Of a stretch of 32,525 nucleotides of DNA, positions 3,105 to 20,783 are shown piece by piece (positions within the stretch are counted from its first letter, which is position 1; each line of letters opens with the position of its first letter). Both the position numbers and the translations under genes were made by a program. The notes under the pieces were generated by a model. The model saw only the letters and a program-made list of their open reading frames with translations, was not told the DNA's origin and made no database searches. The stretch lies in the IMG/VR virus record IMGVR_UViG_651053023_000008; one strand, given 5' to 3'. Source of the DNA: a virus (Duplodnaviria > Heunggongvirae > Uroviricota > Caudoviricetes).

Positions 3105-5093
3105 ATGAAAGAATGGTATACAGCAAAAGAGTTGCTCGGTTTGGCAGGTTTACCAAAGCAAGCCACTAACATTACACGTAAGGCACAAAGAGAAGGCTGG
3201 GAGTTCAGGCAGGTTGCAGGGACTAAAGGTGTATCATTTGAATTCAATATCAAATCATTCCCTGTCGCATTACGTGCTGAAATTCTGTTGCAACAAGGGA
3301 GAATTGAAACCAGTCAGGGGTATTTTGAAATCGCCCGCCCCACGCTGGAAGCCCATGATTATGATCGTGAGGCACTGTGGAGCAAATGGGATAACGCCAG
3401 CGATTCCCAGCGCAGACTTGCTGAAAAATGGTTGCCTGCGGTTCAGGCTGCAGACGAAATGCTGAACCAGGGGATTTCAACGAAAACGGCATTTGCGACC
3501 GTTGCAGGACATTACCAGGTCAGCGCATCCACTTTGCGAGACAAATATTACCAGGTACAGAAGTTTGCGAAGCCTGACTGGGCGGCTGCGCTTGTTGATG
3601 GACGTGGTGCATCCCGTCGCAACGTTCACAAAAGTGAATTTGACGAGGATGCCTGGCAGTTTCTGATTGCAGATTATCTGCGACCAGAAAAACCCGCCTT
3701 TCGCAAATGTTATGAGCGTCTGGAACTGGCAGCCCGCGAGCATGGCTGGAGTATTCCCTCCCGTGCCACGGCCTTTCGCCGGATTCAGCAACTGGACGAG
3801 GCAATGGTTGTTGCCTGCCGTGAAGGTGAACATGCACTGATGCATCTGATACCGGCACAGCAGCGAACTGTGGAACACCTGGACGCCATGCAGTGGATCA
3901 ACGGCGACGGTTATCTGCATAACGTCTTTGTACGCTGGTTTAACGGTGATGTGATCCGCCCGAAAACATGGTTCTGGCAGGATGTGAAAACCCGAAAAAT
4001 TCTGGGCTGGCGCTGCGATGTGAGCGAGAACATTGATTCAATTCGCCTCTCGTTCATGGATGTGGTGACACGCTACGGCATCCCGGAAGATTTTCACATC
4101 ACCATTGATAACACCCGTGGGGCAGCGAATAAATGGCTGACGGGGGGCGCGCCCAATCGTTACCGCTTTAAGGTGAAAGAGGACGATCCAAAGGGACTGT
4201 TTTTACTGATGGGCGCGAAAATGCACTGGACAAGCGTTGTTGCCGGTAAAGGCTGGGGCCAGGCAAAACCTGTTGAACGTGCTTTCGGTGTTGGTGGGCT
4301 TGAGGAATACGTTGATAAGCATCCGGCACTGGCTGGCGCATATACGGGGCCAAATCCGCAGGCAAAACCTGATAACTATGGCGACCGTGCTGTTGATGCA
4401 GAGCTGTTTCTGAAAACCCTTGCTGAAGGTGTGGCGATGTTCAATGCCAGAACAGGCCGTGAAACAGAAATGTGCGGGGGCAAACTCTCGTTTGATGATG
4501 TTTTCGAGCGTGAATACGCCAGAACGATTGTGCGTAAGCCAACCGAAGAACAAAAACGGATGCTGTTACTGCCTGCCGAAGCGGTGAACGTTTCACGCAA
4601 AGGCGAGTTTACGCTTAAAGTTGGCGGCTCCCTTAAAGGCGCGAAAAACGTTTATTACAACATGGCGTTAATGAATGCAGGCGTGAAAAAAGTTGTGGTC
4701 AGGTTTGATCCGCAGCAGCTACACAGCACAGTTTATTGCTACACCCTGGACGGTCGGTTTATCTGTGAAGCGGAATGTCTGGCACCTGTTGCATTTAATG
4801 ATGCTGCGGCAGGCCGTGAATATCGCCGCCGCCAGAAACAACTGAAATCTGCAACTAAAGCAGCCATTAAGGCGCAGAAACAAATGGACGCGCTGGAAGT
4901 TGCTGAACTGCTGCCGCAGATAGCCGAACCAGCAGCACCAGAATCAAGGGTTGTTGGTATTTTCCGGCCTGTGGGTAACACAGTACGGGTTAAATATCGC
5001 ACCCCCGATGATAAATACGAACCCGCTCGTGATGAATATCTGAATCAGTCACTGGATATTCTGGAACAGAAAAGACGTAAAAAAGCCATTTAA
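3105..5093 (+). CDS. A: Mu-type DDE transposase A
   Basis: 662 aa; N-terminal end and enhancer-binding domain, central catalytic core, C-terminal region, at the Mu A position; sequence closely matches MuA as I recall it. Confidence 0.95.
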
Positions 5094-5131: not shown

Positions 5132-6091
5132 ATGAATATTTCCGATATTCGCGCAGGACTGCGCACGCTTGTAGAAAATGGAGAAACCACGCTGACACGC
5201 ATCGCCAGTGAATCAGGCGTGGCCCTGAGCACAGTCAGTGGTTTTGTGAATGATAAATATAACGGCAACATGGAATCAGTCGGGCGCACACTGGAACGCT
5301 GGCTGGAAAACTATCACCGCGCAGAAGAACTGCCGGAACCCCCGCGTTTTGTGGAAACTGCAACAGCCCGTCAAATCTGGACAAGTATGCGTTTTGCTAA
5401 TCTGACCGGAACCATTGCTGTTATCTGCGGTAATCCAGGAGTGGGTAAAAGCGAAGCAGCCCGTGAATTTTGTCGCACTAATAATAATGTCTGGATGATC
5501 ACCATTGCGCCATCCCGTGCCAGTACGCTGGAATGTCTGACTGAACTTGCCGAAGAGTTGGGAATGAATAATGCACCATGTCGCAAAGGACCGCTTTCCC
5601 GTAACCTGCGTCGCCGCCTGAAAGGAACGCAGGGACTGGTCATTGTTGACGAAGCTGATCACCTTGACACCGAAGCGCTGGAAGAGCTCCGTCTGTTACA
5701 GGAGTCCGCCTGTATTGGTCTTGTTCTGATGGGGAATCACCGTGTTTATTCAAATATGACCGCTAATGGCGACAGAACAATTGAGTTTGCCCGTCTGTTT
5801 TCCCGTATTGCAAAGCGCACAGCAATTAATAAAACCAAAGAAGACGATGTAAACGCAATTGCGGATGCCTGGCAGATTACCGGGAAAAATGAACGGGAAT
5901 TATTACAGCAGATTGCACAAACGCCTGGTGCGCTCCGCATTATGAATCAAACGCTGCGCCTTGCTGTTATGAATGCCTTCGGTAAAGGCGAACGTGTTAA
6001 TGAGGATTATCTGCGTGAGGCTTACAAAGAGTTAGACCAGGACGTTGATGTTTCGATGCTGCTGGGTGTGCAAGGGGATGCTGAATCATGA
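5132..6091 (+). CDS. B: transposition ATPase and target-capture protein B
   Basis: 319 aa; Walker A motif GNPGVGKS; directly downstream of A. Confidence 0.9.
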
Positions 6092-8006: not shown

Positions 8007-8546
8007 ATGGTTGATGCAAAAGTTCTGAACGGTGTCAGTACATTATTACGGGCTTACGGACGTCTGACCTGTGGCGTTCTGGCGGAAAAAATGAATATGC
8101 CACCTTCTTCAATGGTGTATTTCCTGCGTGATGCGGTTGATGCCGGAGTTCTCACTGAATGCAACGGATTTTATGACGTTCCGCGCCCTCGTCCGACGCC
8201 GCCAGTAAGACGAAACGCAACGGAGCACCCCGCTGTTGATGATGCTCAATGGTGCGCTTTCCGCCGCTCTTTGCCCTGGCTGGAAGGCAATGCCATTCCG
8301 GCACTGGCAAAAGAATTTGCGACAGGCGTACTGACCTGCGAGTCGGTTTACATCGTTGCTGAAGTGGATGACGAGATGTGCAAACAGGGGATGCCCCGTT
8401 TTGTGATGGCGTATATCGATATCCGACTGGGACGTTTTATTTGTGGCTCCAGTGGCTGGAATATCACCGACCACGTCCTGCGCTATCTCATTCTTGATTA
8501 TTCACCGGTTCCGGCGGCAACACAGGATGTCAGCGAGCATGGTTAA
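8007..8546 (+). CDS. hypothetical early protein with N-terminal winged-helix-like region
   Basis: 179-aa ORF; N-terminal LLRAYGRLTCGVLAEKMNMPPSSMVYFLRDAVDAGVL followed by a Pro-rich linker. Confidence 0.5.
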   Translation: MVDAKVLNGVSTLLRAYGRLTCGVLAEKMNMPPSSMVYFLRDAVDAGVLTECNGFYDVPRPRPTPPVRRNATEHPAVDDAQWCAFRRSLPWLEGNAIPALAKEFATGVLTCESVYIVAEVDDEMCKQGMPRFVMAYIDIRLGRFICGSSGWNITDHVLRYLILDYSPVPAATQDVSEHG

Positions 8547-8721
8547 GTCAATTGGCTTTGTCCTGCTGGTTGGTACTTGCGGGAATGATGCCTGTGATGC
8601 CATTCCGGTAACAGAAAAAATCTGGCCCACAGAACAGGCATGTATGCAGGTGATGGAGCGCATACAAAAACGTTATCCCAGTGAAATCTTTTATTGCGAA
8701 GAGGTATTAAGAAATGAATAA
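8539..8721 (+). CDS. small putative secreted protein or lipoprotein (moron)
   Basis: ATG overlaps the upstream stop. 60 aa; N-terminal hydrophobic segment ending ..LLVGTC (lipobox-like); GC content lower than the surrounding sequence. Confidence 0.4.
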   Translation: MVKSIGFVLLVGTCGNDACDAIPVTEKIWPTEQACMQVMERIQKRYPSEIFYCEEVLRNE

Positions 8722-9103: not shown

Positions 9104-9632
9104 ATTAATTCATGTCGCCCGTCGGGAATTGCAACTTGACGATGACACTTACCGCGCCTTTCTGGTGCAGTGCACGGGCAAAACCAGTTGCCGCGAGCTG
9201 TCCGTTGCACAACTGGAACGGGTGCTCGATGCCATGAAAGAGCGCGGTTTTAAGAAGCAGAAAAAACATCCCCGCCGTCGCTTTAAGGGGCATGTCACAC
9301 CACGCGAGAAGATTTACAAAATCTGGCAGCAGATGTTTCTTGATGGTTTCGTCTCCGATATCAGCGACGCCGCGCTGGACAAATACGTTGAACGCCTGAC
9401 GGCCAGACGTAATGGCGGTCAGGGTGTTTCCACGCTGGCCTGGTGTCACGGGGAATCGTTGCAGGTTGTGCTCGAAACGCTCAAACAGTGGCACATGCGC
9501 TGCATCCGTGAAGCCTTTGCCCGACATGGTGTGCCTTTACCTGTAAGCCCATCCGGGCGGGAACTGCGCGGCTATGATGCACTGACCAGTGCATATGCCC
9601 GCGCACGAAACAGCGGGAGAATTGCTGTATGA
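9081..9632 (+). CDS. gemA: GemA-like protein (Mu gp16 family)
   Basis: Internal ATG 9081 with an AAGGAG ribosome-binding site; 183 aa; position immediately upstream of mor; N-terminal LIHVARRELQLDDDTYRAFL motif. Confidence 0.65.
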   Translation: MSRTSLIKLIHVARRELQLDDDTYRAFLVQCTGKTSCRELSVAQLERVLDAMKERGFKKQKKHPRRRFKGHVTPREKIYKIWQQMFLDGFVSDISDAALDKYVERLTARRNGGQGVSTLAWCHGESLQVVLETLKQWHMRCIREAFARHGVPLPVSPSGRELRGYDALTSAYARARNSGRIAV

Positions 9633-10078
9633 AACAGATGAAAGAGCAGGATTTGTTCGAAGACCTTCGGGACGACAGCGTTCTGGAATATCTTCATGAT
9701 TACCAGGAAAACACCGCTTATCCGGCGTTACTTTCTGAACTGAACGCACTGCTGCGTAAAGAGCTGGCCCGGATTGGCGCAGACCCTGCCCATTCCCTTG
9801 AGCTGGTTGTGGCGATTTGTCGCCATATCGGCGGGATGCAGGTTTATGTTCCGAGGGGGAATATTCTGGAGAATCTTGTCCGGGATATGCGTATCTGGCG
9901 TGATTTTAACGGCCATAATATTCCTGAACTGGTTCAGCGTTACGGGGTGACGTATAAAACCGTCTACAAGGCCATCAAACGGATGCGACGTCTGGAGCGC
10001 AATAAATACCAGCCGGATTTGTTTTACCTCTCCCCGAACCTGCCTCACCCCGTTCGTCGTCCGCCACGACGCCCTTAA
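9629..10078 (+). CDS. mor: Mor/C-family transcriptional activator
   Basis: 149 aa with a Mor-family C-terminal HTH (VYVPRG...IWRDFNG.N..EL..RYGV....VYKAIKRMRR), located at the end of the early operon and followed by a terminator. Confidence 0.8.
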   Translation: MKQMKEQDLFEDLRDDSVLEYLHDYQENTAYPALLSELNALLRKELARIGADPAHSLELVVAICRHIGGMQVYVPRGNILENLVRDMRIWRDFNGHNIPELVQRYGVTYKTVYKAIKRMRRLERNKYQPDLFYLSPNLPHPVRRPPRRP

Positions 10079-10084
10079 TCAATG

Positions 10085-10108
10085 AAGCCGGTAAATCCGG
10101 CTTTTTTT
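10085..10108 (+). terminator. rho-independent terminator after mor (stem AGCCGG, loop TAAAT, stem CCGGCT, T7)
   Basis: Perfect 6-bp stem hairpin followed by seven T, 7 nt after the mor stop. Confidence 0.7.
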
Positions 10109-10122
10109 ATGCCTCCGGCACC

Positions 10123-10752
10123 ATGAAGCAGACCACGTTTAACTCTGCTTCACAGGTGCTTTTTATGGAAAATCTAAAATTATATCTGGCCTTTGAGCGT
10201 GCGCTGAATTTTATTCTGCGTCCTGATATCGAAGGCGTCTATGTCAATGACCCCACTGACCGTGGCGGAGAAACCAGGTACGGCATCTCTGACCGCCGCG
10301 ACGGTGTGATTGACGGCAAAACTGACGTCAACGGTGATGGTAAACCCGACACCCGCATTAAGGATTTTACCCGCGAACAGGTTGCGCAGATTTACTGGCG
10401 CGATTACTGGCTGCCTGCCGGGTGTGACCAGTGGCCTGACAGAGTGGCGCTTTTTGTGTTCGATGCGGCGGTTCAGCATGGTGTTAAAAAAGCCATCAAA
10501 CTTTTGCAGGAAGCCACTGATATCAATGCCGATGGCATCATCGGCCCGCGCACCCGCAGGGCCGTGAACCTGGCTGACCAGAACTGGTTGCTGACCCGCT
10601 GTATTGTCCGTCGTTCCCGCTTTTATGCCGAAATCATCAAATCAAAACCCGCCCAGGGCAAATACCTGAACGGCTGGTTTAACCGCATGGAAAAACTGAC
10701 CGACGCCTGTCTGGAAATCATCGACAACGCGCCGTCCACCACGCGGGGGTGA
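10123..10752 (+). CDS. endolysin, GH108-like N-terminal domain plus peptidoglycan-binding C-terminal domain
   Basis: EGVYVNDPTDRGGETRYGI motif typical of glycoside hydrolase family 108; no N-terminal transmembrane segment. Alternative start at ATG 10165 (MENLKL) has a better ribosome-binding site. Confidence 0.75.
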   Translation: MKQTTFNSASQVLFMENLKLYLAFERALNFILRPDIEGVYVNDPTDRGGETRYGISDRRDGVIDGKTDVNGDGKPDTRIKDFTREQVAQIYWRDYWLPAGCDQWPDRVALFVFDAAVQHGVKKAIKLLQEATDINADGIIGPRTRRAVNLADQNWLLTRCIVRRSRFYAEIIKSKPAQGKYLNGWFNRMEKLTDACLEIIDNAPSTTRG

Positions 10753-10753
10753 T

Positions 10754-11389
10754 ATGGGCAAAGGCTGGGATGCCTCACTGAAAGCCGGGCGGCGTGACCG
10801 CCTGCGTCAGGAGGTTCTGCACCGCATGGCCGGAGGTCCGCCCCCGAAACCGCTGGACTATACCGGCCATGACGGCACACACGCCAGCTACTACATGCGT
10901 GGCTGGAACTCCGTGGATACACGGGACATTTTCTGGCAGTGCCAGAAGTACAGGGAAAAATTCAATGTGGAAAAAGGTAATGAACAAAATTTTAAACTGT
11001 GTGACTGGCTGCTTTGTTCCCGACTGATGAGAACCCCATGGCCGCTGGCCGGACTGACACTCTGCATGTTCATCATCAGCATGTTATGTGGCTGGCGATC
11101 GTTCGTGTTGATGTTGTTGTCCTTTGCCGGGGTGGTGTTGTTTTCATACAGCGCAAGCCTCGGGAATGTGCCATTTCGCCTGCTGCCTGAGGTCCGTTAC
11201 CGGGCTTTTGGTCGCCACATCATCGTGTGGTCATGGGTGGTCTGGGCGCTGGGATATTTCTGCTGCGTCTTCAGCACGCTGATGATGGTGTCACCGGTGC
11301 ATCCGGTGTTCTGGCTGTGTGGTGGCTGTTGCGGCGGTCTGCTCTGTCTTCAGCGTTATCTGTATGGAGGTTTCCCGTGGATCCGTTAA
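10754..11389 (+). CDS. putative lysis-cassette membrane protein (soluble N-terminal part plus about four predicted TM helices); holin candidate
   Basis: 211-aa ORF immediately after the endolysin; the C-terminal 120 aa are strongly hydrophobic. Confidence 0.4.
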   Translation: MGKGWDASLKAGRRDRLRQEVLHRMAGGPPPKPLDYTGHDGTHASYYMRGWNSVDTRDIFWQCQKYREKFNVEKGNEQNFKLCDWLLCSRLMRTPWPLAGLTLCMFIISMLCGWRSFVLMLLSFAGVVLFSYSASLGNVPFRLLPEVRYRAFGRHIIVWSWVVWALGYFCCVFSTLMMVSPVHPVFWLCGGCCGGLLCLQRYLYGGFPWIR

Positions 11390-11985
11390 CCCTTTCAGGC
11401 ATCGCCTCTGTTCTGCTGAAAGCCGGGCCGGGGCTGATTCGTTCCGTCGGGCGCTGGTTTGGTGGCAGTACATCTGCCGCCGCTGACTCGGTGGCCGGTA
11501 TGGTGGAAAGCGTCCGGGAAAGCCTGCCGGTGGCTGAACAGCAACGCATTCTGGAACAAAAACTGGTGATGCTGTCACCGGAGCAACTGATGCAGCTGGA
11601 AACCCTGAAAGTTCAGCTGCAACAGCTGGAGGTGGAGCGGCAGAAGCTGGTGCTGGCTGACCAGCAGGCCGCACACCACGAACAGCAGGAAACCATCCGC
11701 AATGGTGACAACGCCACGGACAGCTATGTGCGCCAGACACGCCCGCTGCTGGCCCGCCTTTCCTGTTACAGCAGTCTGGCCTATGTGCTGTTGCTCTCCT
11801 GCGGCCAGATTGCCGGAGCCATTGCCGGTGCCAGAGGTATCACGCTGCATATGCCATCACCGGACTGGGATATCACGCTGATGTTGCTTACCCCGGCGCT
11901 GGGCTATCTCGGTGTAAGAACCCTTGACGGCTTTGCCCGTTACAGCAAATCAAGCCGTCACAAAATGTCTGCGGGGCCGAAATGA
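11377..11985 (+). CDS. putative membrane protein with central coiled coil and C-terminal TM segments (lysis-associated)
   Basis: GTG 11377 preceded by a GGAGG ribosome-binding site at 11366-11370; Leu/Gln-rich heptad region; two hydrophobic segments near the C-terminus. Confidence 0.5.
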   Translation: MDPLTLSGIASVLLKAGPGLIRSVGRWFGGSTSAAADSVAGMVESVRESLPVAEQQRILEQKLVMLSPEQLMQLETLKVQLQQLEVERQKLVLADQQAAHHEQQETIRNGDNATDSYVRQTRPLLARLSCYSSLAYVLLLSCGQIAGAIAGARGITLHMPSPDWDITLMLLTPALGYLGVRTLDGFARYSKSSRHKMSAGPK

Positions 11986-12209
11986 CCGACGAAATCGATC
12001 GCATCAGTGAAGTGGTTCTGAACGAGCGTCAGAGCGTCGTTAAAGCCTGGCAGACACGGACAAAAGAAGCGCCCCACAGCCGGGGCTTCTGCAATGACTG
12101 CGGGAACGTTATTCCGGCACAGCGCCTTGCGGCGCTGCCGGATGTGGTGACCTGTATTGACTGTCAGCAGATGCGGGAACGCAGGAGGAAATCGTGTCCT
12201 GGGAAATGA
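11982..12209 (+). CDS. TraR/DksA-type C4 zinc-finger protein
   Basis: 75 aa with CNDCGN...x17...CIDC four-cysteine motif. Confidence 0.7.
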   Translation: MTDEIDRISEVVLNERQSVVKAWQTRTKEAPHSRGFCNDCGNVIPAQRLAALPDVVTCIDCQQMRERRRKSCPGK

Positions 12210-15345: not shown

Positions 15346-16913
15346 ACCTGAAACAACTGGCCGGGGCCGTTCGCCGTCTGCTGAACCCGGCAACCGGTGA
15401 GGAAGACACGCTGAAAAAAGAGGCGCTCAACGAAGCACAGGCACGTCCGCGTCATGCCAGTGTGCGTTCGGCCTCGCCGGGCGTCAGCATTGCTTCCGGG
15501 CTGAATCCCGGCAGGCTGGCAGGCATTCTGCGCAATGCTGCCGACGGCACCACGCGTGACTTTTTTATCCTTGCTGAAGAGATGGAAGAACGCGATTTGC
15601 ATTACGCCTCGGTGCTGCGCACCCGCAAGCTGACGGTGGCGGGTATCGAACCGGTGGTGGTGGCCGCCAGTGATGACGATGCTGACGTGCAGCTGGCGGA
15701 CGCCATCCGTGCACTGATGGAAGCACCGCAAATCCCTGAGCTGATGTTTGATCTGCTCGACGGGCTGGGAAAAGGCGTGGCGGTCTGTGAAATTTTGTGG
15801 AACACCCGCAACAACCACTGGGTGCCCCGTGATTATGAGTGGGTTGATCCCCGTTTTCTGAAAGCCGAAAAACCCACGCTGCGCCAGTTCCGCCTGCTGA
15901 CTGACGATGAACCGGTGGATGGCGTACCGCTGACACCGGGAAAATTCATTGTTCACCAGCCGCGCCTGAAATCCGGTCTGCCGCTGCGTAACGGTCTGGC
16001 CCGTCTGGTGGCGGTGATGTACATGCTGAAATCCTTTACCGTGCGTGACTGGTGGGCATTCGCGGAAAAGTTCGGCATTCCGGTTACGGTGGGGAAATAC
16101 GGTCCCAACGCCACGGAGGAGCAAATCCGCGTGCTGATTGACGCGATTGCGTCCATTGCCTCGGATGCCGGGTGTGCCATTCCGCAGTCCATGCAACTGG
16201 AGATGCAGGAAACTGCCAGCCGGAATAACGGCGGCGCACTGTTCTGTGAAATGGCGGAATGGTGTGATGCGCAAATCAGTAAGGCCGTGCTGGGGCAGAC
16301 CATGACCACGGATAACGGCAGTTCGCGCTCACAGGCGGACGTGCACAATCAGGTGCGCATGGACATTGTGCGCTGGGACGCGCGGCAGCTGGCTAACACG
16401 CTGAATGAATTTCTGGTGCGGCCCTACATCGAGGCCAACTACGGGCCACAGGCGCACTACCCCCGTGTTGTTCTGCGTATCAGTGAAGCCGAAGATCTGA
16501 AGGCGCTGACAGATGCTCTGGTGCCGCTGATTGACCGGGGGATGCGGGTTCAGGAATCGGAGCTGCGGGACCGGTTCGGCCTGGCTGAACCGGACGACGG
16601 GGCTGATGTTCTGCATCCGGTTTCTGCCGGAATGTCAGGTGATATGGCGATGAACCGCGAGCGCGTCGCCCTGAACCGTGAACACTCCGACGAACTGGCG
16701 CTGATGGTGGATGATGCCCTGCGTGACTGGCAGAAAACCGGCGAGGTGTTCACGAACCCGGTGCTGACACTGGCGCAGGAATGCGACAGTTTTGATGACT
16801 TTCTGAAACGCCTGCCTGAGCTTCAGGAAACGCTGAACGCGGACGACTTTGCCCTGCAACTGGCGGAGGTGTGCTTTAAGGCCCGTGCGCTGGGGGACAC
16901 TGCTCATGCGTGA
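15342..16913 (+). CDS. H: portal protein (Mu gp29 / H-like)
   Basis: 523-aa ORF following the terminase; Mu-like portal family by sequence pattern and position. Confidence 0.8.
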   Translation: MNLKQLAGAVRRLLNPATGEEDTLKKEALNEAQARPRHASVRSASPGVSIASGLNPGRLAGILRNAADGTTRDFFILAEEMEERDLHYASVLRTRKLTVAGIEPVVVAASDDDADVQLADAIRALMEAPQIPELMFDLLDGLGKGVAVCEILWNTRNNHWVPRDYEWVDPRFLKAEKPTLRQFRLLTDDEPVDGVPLTPGKFIVHQPRLKSGLPLRNGLARLVAVMYMLKSFTVRDWWAFAEKFGIPVTVGKYGPNATEEQIRVLIDAIASIASDAGCAIPQSMQLEMQETASRNNGGALFCEMAEWCDAQISKAVLGQTMTTDNGSSRSQADVHNQVRMDIVRWDARQLANTLNEFLVRPYIEANYGPQAHYPRVVLRISEAEDLKALTDALVPLIDRGMRVQESELRDRFGLAEPDDGADVLHPVSAGMSGDMAMNRERVALNREHSDELALMVDDALRDWQKTGEVFTNPVLTLAQECDSFDDFLKRLPELQETLNADDFALQLAEVCFKARALGDTAHA

Positions 16914-17670
16914 AACCTTCATCCCGAAAGAGGCGCTGGCGTGGCTGAAGGCGAAGAAGCTGCGCCCCGGTTTTGATTACCGGGATGTATGGCGGGAAGA
17001 ACACCGGAACAGCTTCACCGTGGCAAAAATGCTGCAACTGGATTTGTTGTCGGATGTGAAAGCCCTTGTGGAAGACGCCCTGCAAAGCGGGCAGACGTTC
17101 AGCGAGTTCCGGGAGATGCTGCAACCGTTGCTGATAAAACGCGGATGGTGGGGCGTACAGGAGATGGATGATCCGCTGACGGGTGAAACCCGCACCGTGC
17201 AACTGGGCAGCGACCGCCGCCTCCGCACGATTTTTGACACCAACATGCGCACCGCCCGCGCGGCGGGCCAGTGGGAACGCATTCAGCGGACAAAGCGGGC
17301 CATGCCGTATCTGATTTATGAGCTGGGGCCATCCCGTGAGCACCGGGCGGAGCATGTGAAATGGGCGCGTCTGTGTCTGCCGGTAGATCATCCGTTCTGG
17401 CAGACACATTTTGCCCCTAACGGCTGGGGCTGCAAATGCACCATCCGTCAGGTCAGCCGTGGTGAGTATGCGCAACTGGCGGCACAGGGCACCATTCACA
17501 CCGAAGCGCCGGAAATCAGAACTGTCCGCTGGGTGAACAAACGTACGGGCGAAGAGGAAGAGGTGCCGGAAGGGATTGATCCGGGCTGGAACTACAATCC
17601 CGGCATAAACCGTGAGCAGGAGCTGGCGCGCCAGCTGGCGACCAAACAGGCCCGTTTTGACAGTGAGTAG
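16906..17670 (+). CDS. F: head morphogenesis protein, Mu F family
   Basis: Internal ATG 16906 overlapping the portal stop; 254 aa. Confidence 0.7.
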   Translation: MRETFIPKEALAWLKAKKLRPGFDYRDVWREEHRNSFTVAKMLQLDLLSDVKALVEDALQSGQTFSEFREMLQPLLIKRGWWGVQEMDDPLTGETRTVQLGSDRRLRTIFDTNMRTARAAGQWERIQRTKRAMPYLIYELGPSREHRAEHVKWARLCLPVDHPFWQTHFAPNGWGCKCTIRQVSRGEYAQLAAQGTIHTEAPEIRTVRWVNKRTGEEEEVPEGIDPGWNYNPGINREQELARQLATKQARFDSE

Positions 17671-17812
17671 CCCTCCCGCCGTAAATCCCCCTGAAACGCA
17701 TCAGAAACGCGTTTTTTATTCTGATGGCGTGAATGTGCATTCTGACGTTTTTGAAGATGCTGTGGCGTTTTTGAAGGGGGTTTTGAAGGGGGTGTTTCCC
17801 CGTTTTCAGTGA

Positions 17813-17835
17813 AGCCGGTAAATCCGGCTTTTTTT
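17813..17835 (+). terminator. rho-independent terminator (second copy of the element found after mor)
   Basis: Stem AGCCGG 17813-17818, loop TAAAT, stem CCGGCT 17824-17829, T-run 17829-17835. Confidence 0.7.
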
Positions 17836-17884
17836 CTGCCTTCCGCATACTGACCGTCGGTAACCCCAAACGACGGAGACTGAC

Positions 17885-18847
17885 ATGCAACCGGAACTGC
17901 TGGCGCTGTGTTTTTCCCTGCCAGAACCCATCCCTGAGCTGACACCTGCTCAACTGCCGGAATGGCTTGAACTCGTCCCTGCGGGTGAGTTCACCGGGCG
18001 CGATGGCCGGACGTGGATTAACCGCAATCCGCATGAGGTGGTCACCCGCTCGTCCGACATCAAAATTCCGGTGGACATTGAACACGCCACCGAAATTAAA
18101 GGGCAACGCGGTGATGAAGCCCCGGCGTATGGCTGGGTGGAAGAACTGCGCGTGACGGACAGCGGCACCATTGAAGGCCGTGTTGTCTGGAGCGAGTACG
18201 CCCGGTGGATGCTGAGCGAACGCCGCTACCGCTATTACAGCCCGGCGTTTTTCTTTGACGCAGACGGTGTGGTGACGCGCCTGTCCAGCGTCGGGCTGAC
18301 CAACAAACCTAACCTGGACTTTCCTGCACTGAATACGGAGAAAAACCCGATGACAGTACCTGTGCAAATCACCGGCCTGCTTGGGCTGGCTGAATCTGCC
18401 ACGGTGGACGATACCGTGGCCGCCATTAAACAACTTCAGGAGAACGAACAGGTGGCGCTGAACCGCGCACAGACACCTGACCTGACGAAGTTTGTGCCGG
18501 TGGAAACCCACAATCTGGCACTGAACCGTGCCGAAACCGCAGAACAACGCCTTCAGCAACTGGAAGAGAAGGAAGCAGAAGCGCTTGTGGATGCGGCCAT
18601 CGAAGCCGGAAAAGTGGCCCCGGCAAACCGTGACATGTTCCTTGCCACCTGCCGCACGGAAGAAGGCCGCAAACAATTTGCGGAATACACCAAAGGTGCA
18701 CAGCCGCTGGTGAACAACGACAAGCCCAGCCAGGGCAAGGATAAACCCGCGCAGACACTGACCGACGCCGAACTGGCGATGTGCCACAGCATGGGTATTA
18801 CCGGGGAAGAGTTCCTCGCCGCTAAACCTAAACAGGAGAATAACTGA
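17885..18847 (+). CDS. I: head maturation protease and scaffold (Mu I family)
   Basis: 320 aa; N-terminal protease-like domain, C-terminal Ala/Glu/Gln-rich helical scaffold-like region; directly upstream of the major head gene. Confidence 0.8.
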   Translation: MQPELLALCFSLPEPIPELTPAQLPEWLELVPAGEFTGRDGRTWINRNPHEVVTRSSDIKIPVDIEHATEIKGQRGDEAPAYGWVEELRVTDSGTIEGRVVWSEYARWMLSERRYRYYSPAFFFDADGVVTRLSSVGLTNKPNLDFPALNTEKNPMTVPVQITGLLGLAESATVDDTVAAIKQLQENEQVALNRAQTPDLTKFVPVETHNLALNRAETAEQRLQQLEEKEAEALVDAAIEAGKVAPANRDMFLATCRTEEGRKQFAEYTKGAQPLVNNDKPSQGKDKPAQTLTDAELAMCHSMGITGEEFLAAKPKQENN

Positions 18848-19749
18848 TGGGAGCAGTCACTTCCGAAGTCCTTCACGCGCTGACCACCTGTCTGAGCGCC
18901 GCTTATACCCGTGGTCTGAGTGGTGTCACCCCACAATGGCAGCGCATCGCCTCTGAAATCCCGAGTTCGTCCGCTTCCAATACCTACGGCTGGATGAAAG
19001 ATTTACCGGAGATTAAGGAATGGGTCAGCGCCCGTCAGATGGCAACGCTGGACGGTTATGGTTACACCCTTGCGAACAAAACCTGGGAAAGTTCGATCCG
19101 CGTTAAACGCGAACACATTGAAGACGATCAGATTGGTCAGTACAGCATTATCGCTGAACGCTATGGCCGCCAGACGTCGGAGTTCCCGGACAAGCTGTGT
19201 TACCCCCTGCTGTGTGCCGGGTTTAACACCCTGTGTTTTGACGGTCAGAACTTCTTTGATGAAGACCACCCGCTGGGCGACGGCACCTGCAGCAACGTTG
19301 TCGGCACCCCGGCATCAGACCAGGGAGAACCGTGGTTCCTGATTGATGATTCTCAGGTACTGAAACCCATCATCTGGCAGACGCGACGCGCCTTTAAGTT
19401 TGAAGCCCTGGATGATCTGAACAGCGAGCACACCTTCAAGAATAACGAGTTCCTTTACGGGGTGGACGGTCGCTGCAATGCGGGCTTCGGCTTCTGGCAG
19501 ACCGCCGTCGGTTCCCGTGCGGCACTGACAGCGGAGAACTACGAGAAGGCCAGCAATCTGCTGCTGGGTATGAAGGCCACCAACGGTGAACCGCTGGGCA
19601 TCCGCCCGACCACCCTTGTGGTGGGGCCGAAAAACCGTGCAGCCGCGAAGCGCATCATTGACGCCATGCTGGTTAACGGCGGCGATTCCAACATCTGGTA
19701 CAAGGATGTGGACATCGTGGTCAGCCCGTTCATCACCACCCCGGCATAA
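18847..19749 (+). CDS. T: major head subunit (Mu T family)
   Basis: 300 aa, ATGA-coupled to I; matches the Mu-like major capsid protein family in length and position. Confidence 0.8.
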   Translation: MGAVTSEVLHALTTCLSAAYTRGLSGVTPQWQRIASEIPSSSASNTYGWMKDLPEIKEWVSARQMATLDGYGYTLANKTWESSIRVKREHIEDDQIGQYSIIAERYGRQTSEFPDKLCYPLLCAGFNTLCFDGQNFFDEDHPLGDGTCSNVVGTPASDQGEPWFLIDDSQVLKPIIWQTRRAFKFEALDDLNSEHTFKNNEFLYGVDGRCNAGFGFWQTAVGSRAALTAENYEKASNLLLGMKATNGEPLGIRPTTLVVGPKNRAAAKRIIDAMLVNGGDSNIWYKDVDIVVSPFITTPA

Positions 19750-19832
19750 CCCGTCATCCGTAATCTGTTGTAACCCGCAATGACTGGCTGATTAGCTGTA
19801 TCGGCACCAACCTGTCACCGCACCCGGCGTGG

Positions 19833-20426
19833 ATGTGGGCCGCGTCATACGGCGCAACGGCAGCGTATCACCTTGCCATTGACCCGGCGCGTCCGCTTCA
19901 GACGCTGGTCCTGACCGGCATTCTGCCGCCTGCGCGTAATGTTCGCTGGGATATGCCGGAACGTAACCTGCTGCTGCATGACGGCATTGCCACGCACATG
20001 GTGGACGCCGGGGATAACGTCTGCATAGAGCGTGAAATCACCATGTACCGGGTTAATCAGTACGGTGATGCGGATGTGTCGTACCTTGATGTGCAGTCAC
20101 CCGCCACGCTGGGCCGTATCCGTTACATCATCAAGAACCGTTTCACGAACCGTTATCCGCGCCACAAGCTGGCAGATGATGACGTGCTGGACTCACTGGA
20201 TGCCGGTCAGCCGGTGATGACGCCGAAGCTGTGCACCGCAGAGCTGCTGGATATCTGCCAGACCGAACTTATTCCTGCGGGCCTTGTGGAGAACTTCAGC
20301 GATTACAAGGACACGCTTCAGGTGACACGCGACAGCAGCGATAAAAACCGTCTGAACTTTATCTGTCACCCGAATCTGGTGAACCAGCTGCGTGTGCTGG
20401 CAGGCCTGATTCAGTTCAAGCTTTAA
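19833..20426 (+). CDS. hypothetical tail-region protein; possibly the C-terminal remnant of a contractile-sheath gene
   Basis: 197-aa ORF. The reading frame is open upstream to 19764 with no start codon and no ribosome-binding site before ATG 19833; it sits where the sheath gene would be in Mu. Confidence 0.4.
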   Translation: MWAASYGATAAYHLAIDPARPLQTLVLTGILPPARNVRWDMPERNLLLHDGIATHMVDAGDNVCIEREITMYRVNQYGDADVSYLDVQSPATLGRIRYIIKNRFTNRYPRHKLADDDVLDSLDAGQPVMTPKLCTAELLDICQTELIPAGLVENFSDYKDTLQVTRDSSDKNRLNFICHPNLVNQLRVLAGLIQFKL

Positions 20427-20435
20427 GGGGGCCGC

Positions 20436-20783
20436 ATGGCAAAAATTCTTGGCATGGCGACCATTCGCGTGAATGGCCGCGAAATTAAAACCGAGGGGAA
20501 ATCCACGCTGAATCCGGGCGGCTTCAGTCGCACCCAGCATATGGGCGGCGGCAAGGTCTGGGGTATCTCCAGCAAGATGGCCTCGCCGTCCATCAAGGTG
20601 ACCATTGCGGCGGCAGCGGATATGGACGTGATTGAAATCAGCAGCTGGGAAGACGTCACGGTGATGTTCTACGGCGACAACGGCCTGAACTACATGATGA
20701 CGGGTCCGCCACGGATAACCCGGCGGAGCTGGACGAGGATTCCGGCACCATCAGTGCGAACTTTATCGGTGAAAAATGCGTGA
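20436..20783 (+). CDS. tail tube protein (Mu M-like)
   Basis: 115 aa directly upstream of the chaperone and tape-measure genes. An alternative 3' end in another frame would stop at 20791. Confidence 0.55.
   Translation: MAKILGMATIRVNGREIKTEGKSTLNPGGFSRTQHMGGGKVWGISSKMASPSIKVTIAAAADMDVIEISSWEDVTVMFYGDNGLNYMMTGPPRITRRSWTRIPAPSVRTLSVKNA

Follow-up and report, generated by a model that had tools for sequence, protein, structure and literature searches.

The lysis genes of phage Mu are among the closest described counterparts of the locus treated here, the lysis interval of a Mu-like prophage found on a 32,525-nucleotide (nt) stretch of DNA (IMG/VR record IMGVR_UViG_651053023_000008, Caudoviricetes; this whole stretch is referred to below as the window). 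In Mu, the releasin gp25, a DUF2730 protein, acts on the membrane-tethered signal-anchor-release (SAR) domain of the endolysin gp22 via Lys6/Lys7 and shows no holin-like lethality; gp19 and gp20 were also tested, and gp19 caused no lethality triggered by dinitrophenol (DNP), nor was lysis significantly altered when it was inactivated (Chamblee et al., 2022; PMC9239132). In all 34 phages surveyed in that study DUF2730 is encoded within five genes downstream of the endolysin, and Mu-like phages pairing DUF2730 with endolysins of the PF05838 + PF09374 type were already tabulated; according to the authors, the releasin models are not applicable to endolysins without SAR domains (PMC9239132).

Three further systems are relevant. 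The holin TeaA of Vibrio phage ICP1 causes the proton motive force to collapse and can be triggered with DNP (Hays and Seed, 2020, eLife; PMC7182436). Lysis and release of the gene transfer agent RcGTA require the gene pair rcc00555/rcc00556 (PMC5026251), and the endolysin of phage T5, EndoT5, is mentioned as calcium-activated in PMC10487532.

A Mu-like prophage and its lysis interval

We read the window as a decaying, Mu-like transposable prophage of Escherichia coli, whose interval behind the activator gene is the lysis part of a Mor-activated operon. For this explanation as a whole, including the assignment of a 202-amino acid (aa) protein as the holin and of a 211-aa open reading frame (ORF) as a frameshift fusion, we estimate a joint probability of about 0.72. 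The first-pass annotation of this DNA had described an unusual cassette composed of a soluble endolysin and two atypical membrane proteins; the three ORFs on which it was based (10123-10752, 10754-11389 and 11227-11985) are all present. The interval contains the following features, in which TMD stands for transmembrane domain:

10165..10752, plus strand: soluble endolysin of 195 aa with GH108 and PG_binding_3 domains (Pfam, PHROG, hydropathy, PDB matches, RefSeq starts)
10754..10996, plus strand: Mu gp18 homologue (83 aa in intact relatives), soluble, stop codon lost here through a frameshift (tblastn, PF26867)
10994..10996, plus strand: frameshift site, AAA here and AAAA in every relative examined (alignments)
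10980..11389, plus strand: gene of a 4-TMD membrane protein (136 aa in relatives), positional counterpart of Mu gp19 (hydropathy, position, phrog_12596)
11377..11985, plus strand: probable holin of 202 aa, TeaA-like (phrog_1544, remote PF11351; PHROG, profiles, hydropathy, AlphaFold2, neighbourhoods)

The plus strand follows the gene order of Mu: transposase A (3105-5093), B (5132-6091), Kil, Gam, a gp11-like gene, GemA and the Mor-family activator (9629-10078) precede the lysis interval, which is followed by genes of a TraR-type zinc finger, DUF2730, gp26-like and gp27 proteins, the large terminase (TerL), portal, F, protease, major head and tail proteins. Megablast searches detected about 50 related prophages with 90-97% identity among complete E. 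coli genomes, and contigs with 99.7-99.9% identity to the window occur in draft assemblies; a megablast of the lysis cassette against the phage collection gave no match.

The endolysin

The endolysin ORF is open from an ATG at 10123; gene callers and RefSeq start the related genes at the Met equivalent to 10165, which is most likely the true start. The product matches PF05838 (GH108; E 7e-23, 81.4 bits against a gathering score of 21.2), PF09374 (PG_binding_3; E 2.5e-17, 63.2 against 24.6 bits) and phrog_315 ("endolysin"). The solved structures closest to it are the GH108 proteins 2IKB/2IS5 (5e-20), followed by 7DNP, 2NR7 and the TtsA-like 6V3Z/6V40; the founding member of the GH108 family is gp61 of coliphage N4. 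In the motif E23-G-V-Y ... D32-R-G-G-E-T-R-Y-G-I, the residue E23 (codon 10231-10233), the putative catalytic Glu, is invariant in an alignment of 42 homologues, as are G34, G35, E36, T37 and G40. With either start codon no stretch of 19 residues reaches 1.0 on the Kyte-Doolittle scale, and hence no signal, signal-anchor or SAR segment was recognized. The earlier description of a soluble GH108 endolysin without a signal anchor is thereby upheld, both by Pfam scores above the gathering thresholds and by the lack of any hydrophobic segment even at this lax threshold. Judged from its sequence, the protein is a standard GH108 + PG_binding_3 muramidase, ordinary apart from an inserted loop described below.

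An identical 195-aa sequence is encoded on at least 23 contigs. The C-terminus (10715-10752) differs by a 9-nt indel and several substitutions from the alleles of KFu019, XJ34 and RM9088 (...IIDNAPSTTRG versus ...IIDTPLGIMSATRG), and is identical in the closest draft-genome relatives.

A frameshift fusion behind the endolysin gene

The 211-aa ORF (10754-11389) is open in the window, and its hydropathy profile shows a soluble first half followed by a C-terminal half with four hydrophobic segments. To this extent the two-part membrane protein of the earlier description stands, but as a real protein it does not, since the ORF arises by a one-base fusion of two genes. Where the window has one gene, RefSeq gives two overlapping ones in three related E. 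coli prophages, encoding 83 (or 75) aa and 136 aa; in the relatives the first gene ends with ...N-F-K-T-V and a stop codon, and the second begins, in the +1 frame, at the ATG equivalent to 10980 (M-N-K-I-L-K-L-C-D-W...). The window reads ...ACAAAATTTTAAACTG... and the relatives read ...TTTTAAAACTG...; thus, one A of an A4 run is missing, and its loss joins the gp18-like and gp19-like frames into the 211-aa ORF.

The alignments of this site took in 4 + 4 relatives. The 83- and 136-aa genes are found on all contigs that encode the identical endolysin, and each of the five such contigs aligned carries AAAA. One of these five (L011) differs from the window, in 6588 nt at 99.94% identity, by three substitutions and by AAA/AAAA as the sole gap. 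Among complete E. coli genomes, each of the 12 matching places spans 82 nt for the 81-nt query and contains two coding sequences. Two genes are also kept by the strongly diverged allele of XJ34 and by the version found in Klebsiella phage Kp4866-3.

Both parts of the ORF have counterparts in Mu. The gp18-like protein shows 69% identity over 72 residues to gp18 of Mu and D108 (E 3e-27, tblastn), and the intact 83-aa product of relatives has a precomputed match to PF26867 (Phage_Mu_gp18). The Pfam library used in this study, which did not include the PF26867 model, gave no match for the 83- or 136-aa proteins, alone or fused, and neither NCBIfam nor PADLOC matched the 83-, 136- or 202-aa proteins. 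Homologues of the gp18-like gene occupy the same position in Mu-like phages of Shewanella, Vibrio, Pseudoalteromonas and Klebsiella. In the Mu record gp19 is a 120-aa N-in, C-in protein with four TMDs, encoded directly after gp18 and overlapping it. The 136-aa protein of the relatives has the same placement, directly 3' of and overlapping the gp18-like gene, and the same four hydrophobic segments; its similarity to Mu gp19 is marginal (BLASTP E 0.01 over 22 residues, with an S-x-x-CGWR motif), and the two belong to different PHROGs (12596 versus 4975). In the window this gene's own start codon, the ATG at 10980, lies in a different frame from the remainder of the coding sequence, and an internal ATG at 11027 would give a product of 120 aa.

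The 4-TMD gene is variable and sparsely represented. Only four 90%-identity clusters were found among 5.8 billion proteins, their full-length representatives having 136 aa. The alleles of the window and XJ34 are 40% identical, versus approximately 97% for the flanking gp18-like protein and approximately 100% for the 202-aa protein; the richness in Cys and Trp pointed out earlier for the hydrophobic half is real but specific to this allele. Positions 10968-11377 form a sharply bounded hypervariable cassette: BLAST alignments with three prophages (XJ34, L023 and L024) break exactly at its borders, and the encoded proteins are approximately 40% identical, the flanking genes being 92-98% identical at the DNA level. 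This variability looks like allelic replacement or diversifying selection.

It was also considered whether the 211-aa ORF might be a genuine two-domain membrane protein, acting as an atypical holin or lysis factor. The frame is open, its four hydrophobic segments are plain, and a single profile, phrog_2121, spans both halves; against this, every relative examined, including contigs 99.9% identical to the window and the diverged alleles, has two genes in different frames, the exact 211-aa product has no record in a collection of 153 billion gene positions, the two halves correspond to Mu gp18 and to the position of Mu gp19, which are separate genes in Mu, and the prophage has other lesions. A genuine 211-aa protein is, in consequence, scarcely credible. 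The first-pass annotation had itself allowed that its hydrophobic ORFs could be out-of-frame artefacts, and for the 211-aa ORF this is the case, two genes being found in every relative examined. Programmed frameshifting at the A/T run was rejected as well, given that in the diverged alleles, which do not share this sequence, there are still two distinct genes that overlap. On the evidence of these alignments, the 211-aa ORF is a frameshifted pseudogene fusion of a Mu gp18 homologue and a 4-TMD protein in the Mu gp19 position, and corresponds to no natural protein.

Decay of this prophage copy

Comparison with the closest relative (L022) revealed further lesions. Approximately 2.9 kb of that prophage (its positions 15966-18897) are missing at 19766-19779 of the window, which removes the gp36-like, tail-completion (Phage_tail_S), 203-aa and DUF2635 genes together with the first ~295 residues of the tail sheath, so that the ORF at 19833-20426 (197 aa) represents only the sheath C-terminus. 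The deletion is clean and ends in a short shared sequence; it is a real rearrangement typical of prophage decay. With these losses, this copy cannot build a tail. In addition, a 1-nt deletion at 20705 alters the last ~26 residues encoded by the tail tube gene (20436-20783), and an intergenic G-run at 17776 has a 1-nt insertion. With the 2.9-kb deletion and the tail-tube frameshift present in the same copy, the fusion at 10994 is most readily understood as one lesion among several in a prophage undergoing decay.

A probable holin of the TeaA type

The third gene of the interval was identified with a different start from that of the 252-aa ORF (ORF3, 11227-11985) of the earlier description. It begins at GTG 11377, with GGAGG six bases ahead of it; RefSeq uses this start for the relatives, and XJ34 has ATG there. 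The 252-aa ORF thus includes 50 N-terminal residues that do not belong to the gene. Of the coiled-coil protein with C-terminal transmembrane segments that had been noted, the hydrophobic hairpin at the C-terminus and the helical/coiled-coil middle are upheld, and these 50 residues are not.

Hydropathy analysis of the 202-aa protein indicated a weak N-terminal amphipathic segment (residues 3-21) and a hairpin at ~124-152 and 165-183. Three arginines (R119, R122 and R127) precede the hairpin and a strongly basic tail follows it (net charge approximately +5); with basic residues on both sides, the positive-inside rule predicts an N-in/C-in topology with a cytoplasmic helical domain of approximately 100 residues. 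The AlphaFold2 model, computed from a 90-sequence alignment, is all-helical with a mean predicted local distance difference test (pLDDT) score of 91.5. The family, which comprises 134 clusters at 50% identity in an exhaustive HMMER search, has two conserved motifs: AGP-x-L-I-R-x-x-G-x-L-F-G-G near the N-terminus, and Q-x-T-I-R-x-G-D-x-x-x-D-x-Y-V-R-x-T-R-P before the first TMD. The string LLLSC was tried as a lipobox and rejected, the Cys not being conserved in the Klebsiella homologue.

Several lines of evidence link this protein with described holins. It matches phrog_1544 with E 1.3e-59 (residues 1-199 on profile positions 1-192 of 200), and so does TeaA (E 1.7e-53, residues 5-181 on positions 6-199); the identity of TeaA as YP_004251079/ORF137 of ICP1, listed with 2 TMDs, was confirmed from the supplement and primers of the paper describing it. 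A profile built from 90 relatives of the 202-aa protein detects TeaA (24 bits in hmmsearch; 83% probability and E 8e-6 in hhalign). Forty of these 90 relatives match PF11351 at E <= 0.01, the best at 8.4e-9. TeaA itself has no PF11351 match by hmmscan, the link running via the PHROG and profile searches. With the structural model as query, the top Foldseek match in BFVD was "Holin of 3TMs, for gene-transfer release" (E 1.7e-7); in PDB there was none at E <= 0.001.

Gene neighbourhoods are consistent with this, adjacency to an endolysin gene being seen in the Mu-like clade and in six other, unrelated contexts. Relatives of the 202-aa protein are encoded directly after endolysins of at least six types: (i) GH108 (the window, Shewanella MuM16-2 and Vibrio LP.1), (ii) DUF5675 (Vibrio Martha 12B12 and ZX4290), (iii) CwlK-type LD-endopeptidase (Janthinobacterium phage Donnerlittchen), (iv) amidase (Vibrio D65), and (v) GH19-like and (vi) M15_3 endolysins (two metagenomic contigs). 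In the Shewanella and Vibrio Mu-like phages the homologue and DUF2730 are the sole membrane proteins of the cassette. From the shared phrog_1544, the PF11351 matches among relatives, the Foldseek result and the endolysin neighbourhoods, we assign the 202-aa protein as a probable holin and place it, unannotated until now, in the TeaA/GTA holin lineage. The judgement that there is no canonical small holin here (a late-region protein of about 60-150 aa with 1-3 TMDs) was sound, in that the only genes with TMDs on the coding strand of the window are those of the 4-TMD, 202-aa and DUF2730 proteins; the label "atypical" for the third ORF was less apt, as it shares a PHROG with the characterized holin TeaA and is atypical only in comparison with lambda-type holins.

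A number of observations weigh against the explanation as a whole. On the side of the holin, the profile match to TeaA covers the N-terminal part only, the pairwise similarity of the two proteins is weak (E 0.004 over 71 residues), and the 202-aa protein falls below the gathering score of PF11351, GTA_holin_3TM (20.4 against 24.8 bits, E 7.8e-4), which makes it a remote relative of that family on sequence grounds and no Pfam member. In three non-Mu phages a small ORF with one or two TMDs precedes the endolysin gene and the 202-aa-like gene follows it, in the usual position of spanins; from these gene orders, a lysis role other than that of a holin is possible. On the side of the fusion, phrog_2121 is a single profile, 284 positions long, to which the gp18-like protein aligns at positions 3-85 and both the 4-TMD and the 202-aa proteins at positions that overlap; such coverage suggests that one or more fused or mis-called sequences connect these families within it.

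The single-base differences might, moreover, be sequencing errors, which is possible because all three of those separating the window from its closest relative lie in short homopolymers (A4/A3 at 10994, G4/G5 at 17776, TT/T at 20705). If the deletion at 10994 were a homopolymer sequencing or assembly error, the source would have intact gp18-like and 4-TMD genes. We regard this as unlikely, although it retains a sizeable share of the probability: the runs are very short for a systematic homopolymer error, the same copy has the clean 2.9-kb deletion, and more than 40 substitutions separate the window from its closest relative, making it an independent lineage. Either way, a 211-aa protein is no natural design.

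Alternatively, the 136-aa 4-TMD protein could be the holin, with the 202-aa protein serving as antiholin, regulator or outer-membrane spanin substitute. The 4-TMD gene evolves very fast, as holin genes do, between nearly constant neighbours; Mu gp19/gp20 were proposed as holin and antiholin by Samanta et al., as cited in PMC9239132; and both the gene order of the non-Mu phages mentioned above and the failure to find a spanin would fit. However, the behaviour of Mu gp19 in lethality and lysis assays (PMC9239132) speaks against a holin in this position, Mu-like phages of Shewanella and Vibrio whose endolysins are soluble have no 4-TMD gene and keep the 202-aa homologue, and it is the 202-aa protein that shares a PHROG with the tested holin TeaA. 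As a spanin substitute it would be poorly placed, its helical domain being predicted on the cytoplasmic side, out of reach of the outer membrane. This distribution of roles therefore seems to us improbable, and the 202-aa protein is retained as the probable holin.

The Asp/Gly-rich loop of the endolysin

10300..10350, plus strand: Asp/Gly-rich loop D46-D62 (DGVIDGKTDVNGDGKPD), an insertion in the GH108 domain with a DxNxDG motif at D54

The Asp-rich segment singled out earlier, DGKTDVNGDGKPD, spans nt 10312-10350 and corresponds to D50-D62 in the numbering of the 195-aa endolysin. In comparison with 2IKB, approximately 10 additional residues separate the D-x-G-G-x-T-x-x-G-I motif from the next helix, and the GH108 lysin of Shewanella phage MuM16-2 is without the loop. 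It is present in all 120 database homologues retrieved (58-84% identity; Escherichia, Klebsiella, Citrobacter, Serratia, Yersinia and others), with the consensus R-D-G-x-A-D-G-x-T-D-V-[DN]-G-D-G-K-P-D-T. In the 42-sequence alignment D46, G47, D50, G51, D54, G57, D58 and P61 are invariant, and D62 is conserved in at least 90% of sequences. The inserted loop was therefore correctly recognized as a genuine feature, and the sequences identify it as real, selected and lineage-specific in a subfamily of enterobacterial endolysins.

Its supposed resemblance to a calcium-binding loop was also considered. The core D54-V-N-G-D58-G fits the pattern D-x-[DN]-x-[DN]-G with conserved acidic ligands; the PROSITE EF-hand pattern PS00018 has no match in the loop, being violated at positions 8 (Pro) and 12 (Ile). 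The AlphaFold2 model of the endolysin (predicted template modelling score 0.81) has pLDDT below 50 for residues 33-49, leaves the loop unresolved and says nothing on metal geometry. Calcium binding would be a reasonable idea, neither supported nor excluded by the sequence.

Activator gene and promoter region

9629..10078, plus strand: Mor/C-family transcription activator (PF08765, E 3.6e-30; phrog_532 "late transcriptional activator", E 6.5e-41)
10084..10111, plus strand: GC-rich hairpin and T-run with the core AAGCCGGTaAATCCGGCTTTTTTT (terminator-like scan; alignment with the Mu mor-gp18 intergenic region)

The window has a single Mor/C-family gene and no second paralogue. The hairpin AAGCCGGTAAATCCGGC with its T-run (10084-10111) is nearly identical to an element inside the Mor-dependent middle promoter region of Mu, where the annotation places a promoter and a terminator in the mor-gp18 intergenic region, the middle promoter driving gp18-gp19-gp20-C. 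As the endolysin gene lies directly behind the hairpin, this arrangement suggests that the single Mor-family activator would switch on an operon starting with the endolysin.

DUF2730, zinc-finger protein and the search for spanins

11982..12209, plus strand: TraR/DksA C4 zinc-finger protein (PF01258, E 7e-11), whose position between the holin candidate and DUF2730 is conserved in the phage clade
12194..12499, plus strand: DUF2730 protein, homologue of the Mu gp25 releasin (PF10805, E 1e-30), with an N-terminal TMD (11-29) and a helical domain

The DUF2730 protein matches PF10805 over its whole length (106 bits against 24.9) and is 27% identical to Mu gp25 (E 5e-12); its gene lies within five genes downstream of the endolysin. 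Lysis might accordingly be independent of a holin, with the DUF2730 protein mediating release of the endolysin as in holin-less Mu. The PF10805 match and a placement seen in 34 of the 34 phages surveyed (PMC9239132) agree with such a mechanism; the endolysin does not, since the Mu releasin needs the SAR domain of gp22 and the window endolysin has neither a SAR domain nor a TMD, so that a releasin-like action was not supported. The authors of the releasin study exclude non-SAR endolysins from their models, and gp25 lacks holin-like lethality (PMC9239132). We consider DUF2730-mediated release highly unlikely and keep to a holin as the releasing protein. The cassette had earlier been called unusual, which is too strong in view of the GH108 + DUF2730 pairs tabulated in Mu-like phages (PMC9239132); the combination of a soluble endolysin with DUF2730 is already known.

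No plausible spanin lipoprotein was found on the coding strand of the window in two six-frame lipobox scans. In contrast to Mu, neither a two-component nor a unimolecular spanin candidate was recognized in this prophage lineage. The right end of an intact relative, the KFu019 prophage (L025), contains only baseplate, tail-fibre, com and mom genes and no annotated spanin.

A separate observation concerns the early region, in which a 60-aa ORF (8539-8721; MSASMVKSIGFVLLVGTCGNDAC...) starts with a hydrophobic stretch resembling a signal sequence, which closes with an imperfect lipobox (V-G-T-C); the ORF has four more Cys residues. It is called as a gene in relatives, at approximately the location of the equally sized Mu gp13, and may encode a small secreted protein or lipoprotein outside the lysis cassette.

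Proposed lysis pathway and implications

By homology, the GH108/PG_binding_3 muramidase is made without an export signal and, for that reason, must accumulate in the cytoplasm. The 202-aa protein would insert into the inner membrane through its C-terminal two-TMD hairpin, keeping its helical N-terminal domain in the cytoplasm, and on triggering would form holes through which the endolysin reaches the murein. In intact relatives the 4-TMD protein, encoded directly upstream of the holin gene like ArrA in ICP1, is most likely, to judge from this analogy, an accessory or regulatory membrane protein and not a holin. The DUF2730 homologue is present, and with an endolysin of the non-SAR type it cannot act in the way described for Mu. 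For the outer-membrane step no spanin could be recognized.

A more elaborate pathway can be imagined for the intact relatives: the loop would be a Ca2+ switch that holds back the endolysin while it is in the cytoplasm, the fast-evolving 4-TMD protein would be the regulatory partner of a TeaA-type holin, and DUF2730 would have a non-SAR role, possibly in the outer-membrane step given that no spanin is encoded. Taken jointly these proposals are doubtful. If they were true, E. coli hosts would make the question raised by Chamblee et al. (2022), that of DUF2730 with non-SAR endolysins, directly testable.

For annotation, the consequences are more immediate. None of the sources returning the 202-aa family gives it a functional name: it is a "hypothetical protein" in every protein source that names it, more than 100 clusters from Klebsiella, Citrobacter and Escherichia among them, and of "unknown function" in PHROGs, and one phage record says only that it is a protein with transmembrane segments. 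The family could be named TeaA-like putative holin, the 83- and 136-aa genes could be tied to Mu gp18 and to the gp19 position, respectively, and records of the 211-aa ORF should mark it as a pseudogene fusion caused by a frameshift. The prophage also provides an E. coli representative of the Mu-like phages with a cytoplasmic endolysin and DUF2730, which fall outside the Mu releasin model, and it is one without a recognizable spanin; what interest remains attaches to the loop, to DUF2730 beside a soluble endolysin and to the lack of spanins in a lineage hosted by E. coli. The invariant Asp/Gly loop, occurring in a widespread subfamily of enterobacterial endolysins, is an easy target for studies of metal dependence. 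Overall, the cassette is a new member of known families of lysis genes, and current understanding is not overturned by it.

Comparison with known lysis systems

The endolysin shares its two domains and the E-G-x-Y...D-x-G-G-x-T-x-x-G-I signature with the GH108 + PG_binding_3 muramidases NMB1012 (2IKB), 7DNP and TtsA-like 6V3Z/6V40 (typhoid-toxin secretion muramidase), but the solved GH108 structures are without the insertion of approximately 10 Asp/Gly-rich residues that it carries between the catalytic motif and the next helix. EndoT5, as it is mentioned in PMC10487532, offers a precedent for an endolysin that accumulates in the cytoplasm and needs Ca2+, a role that the loop could have; it differs in fold and chemistry (an M15 L-alanoyl-D-glutamate peptidase), and the loop of the window endolysin lacks a PROSITE EF-hand match.

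In RcGTA, as here, an endolysin gene (rcc00555) is followed by the gene of a PF11351-type membrane protein (rcc00556), and rcc00555 is GH108-like as well. The window protein differs in scoring below the PF11351 gathering threshold; it is likened to rcc00556 via the Pfam family.

The 202-aa protein and TeaA of ICP1 have in common an N-terminal amphipathic segment with ...WFGG..., a helical domain of approximately 100 residues and two C-terminal TMDs, whereas a pairwise comparison, confined to the N-terminal 71 residues, gives an identity of only ~23%. Directly upstream of the holin gene, each phage has a gene for a multi-TMD protein: arrA in ICP1, and in the intact relatives of the window that of the 136-aa protein. 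No similarity was detectable between the 136-aa protein and ArrA (E 15), and the idea of an antiholin is based on position and topology. ICP1 is a large virulent Vibrio myovirus with lysis inhibition, and the window a temperate transposable E. coli prophage. Upstream of arrA/teaA, ICP1 also has ORF139 (19753-20097 of L021, minus strand), whose 114-aa product resembles DUF2730/Mu gp25 in architecture, a coiled-coil-like region following an N-terminal TMD, and has no Pfam match.

With Mu, finally, the window shares, in the same order, the gp18 homologue, the 4-TMD protein directly after it, the DUF2730/gp25 homologue, the gp26-like gene and gp27, as well as the nearly identical hairpin after the Mor-family gene. 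The endolysins differ in type and place: gp22 of Mu is a SAR lysozyme (PF00959 type) encoded after C, while that of the window is a soluble GH108 protein encoded before the gp18-like gene. Mu has gp20, the spanins gp23/23.1 and a second Mor/C paralogue, which the window lacks, and the window has the TeaA-like holin candidate and the TraR-type zinc finger, both absent from Mu. Mu is reported to be holin-less (PMC9239132).

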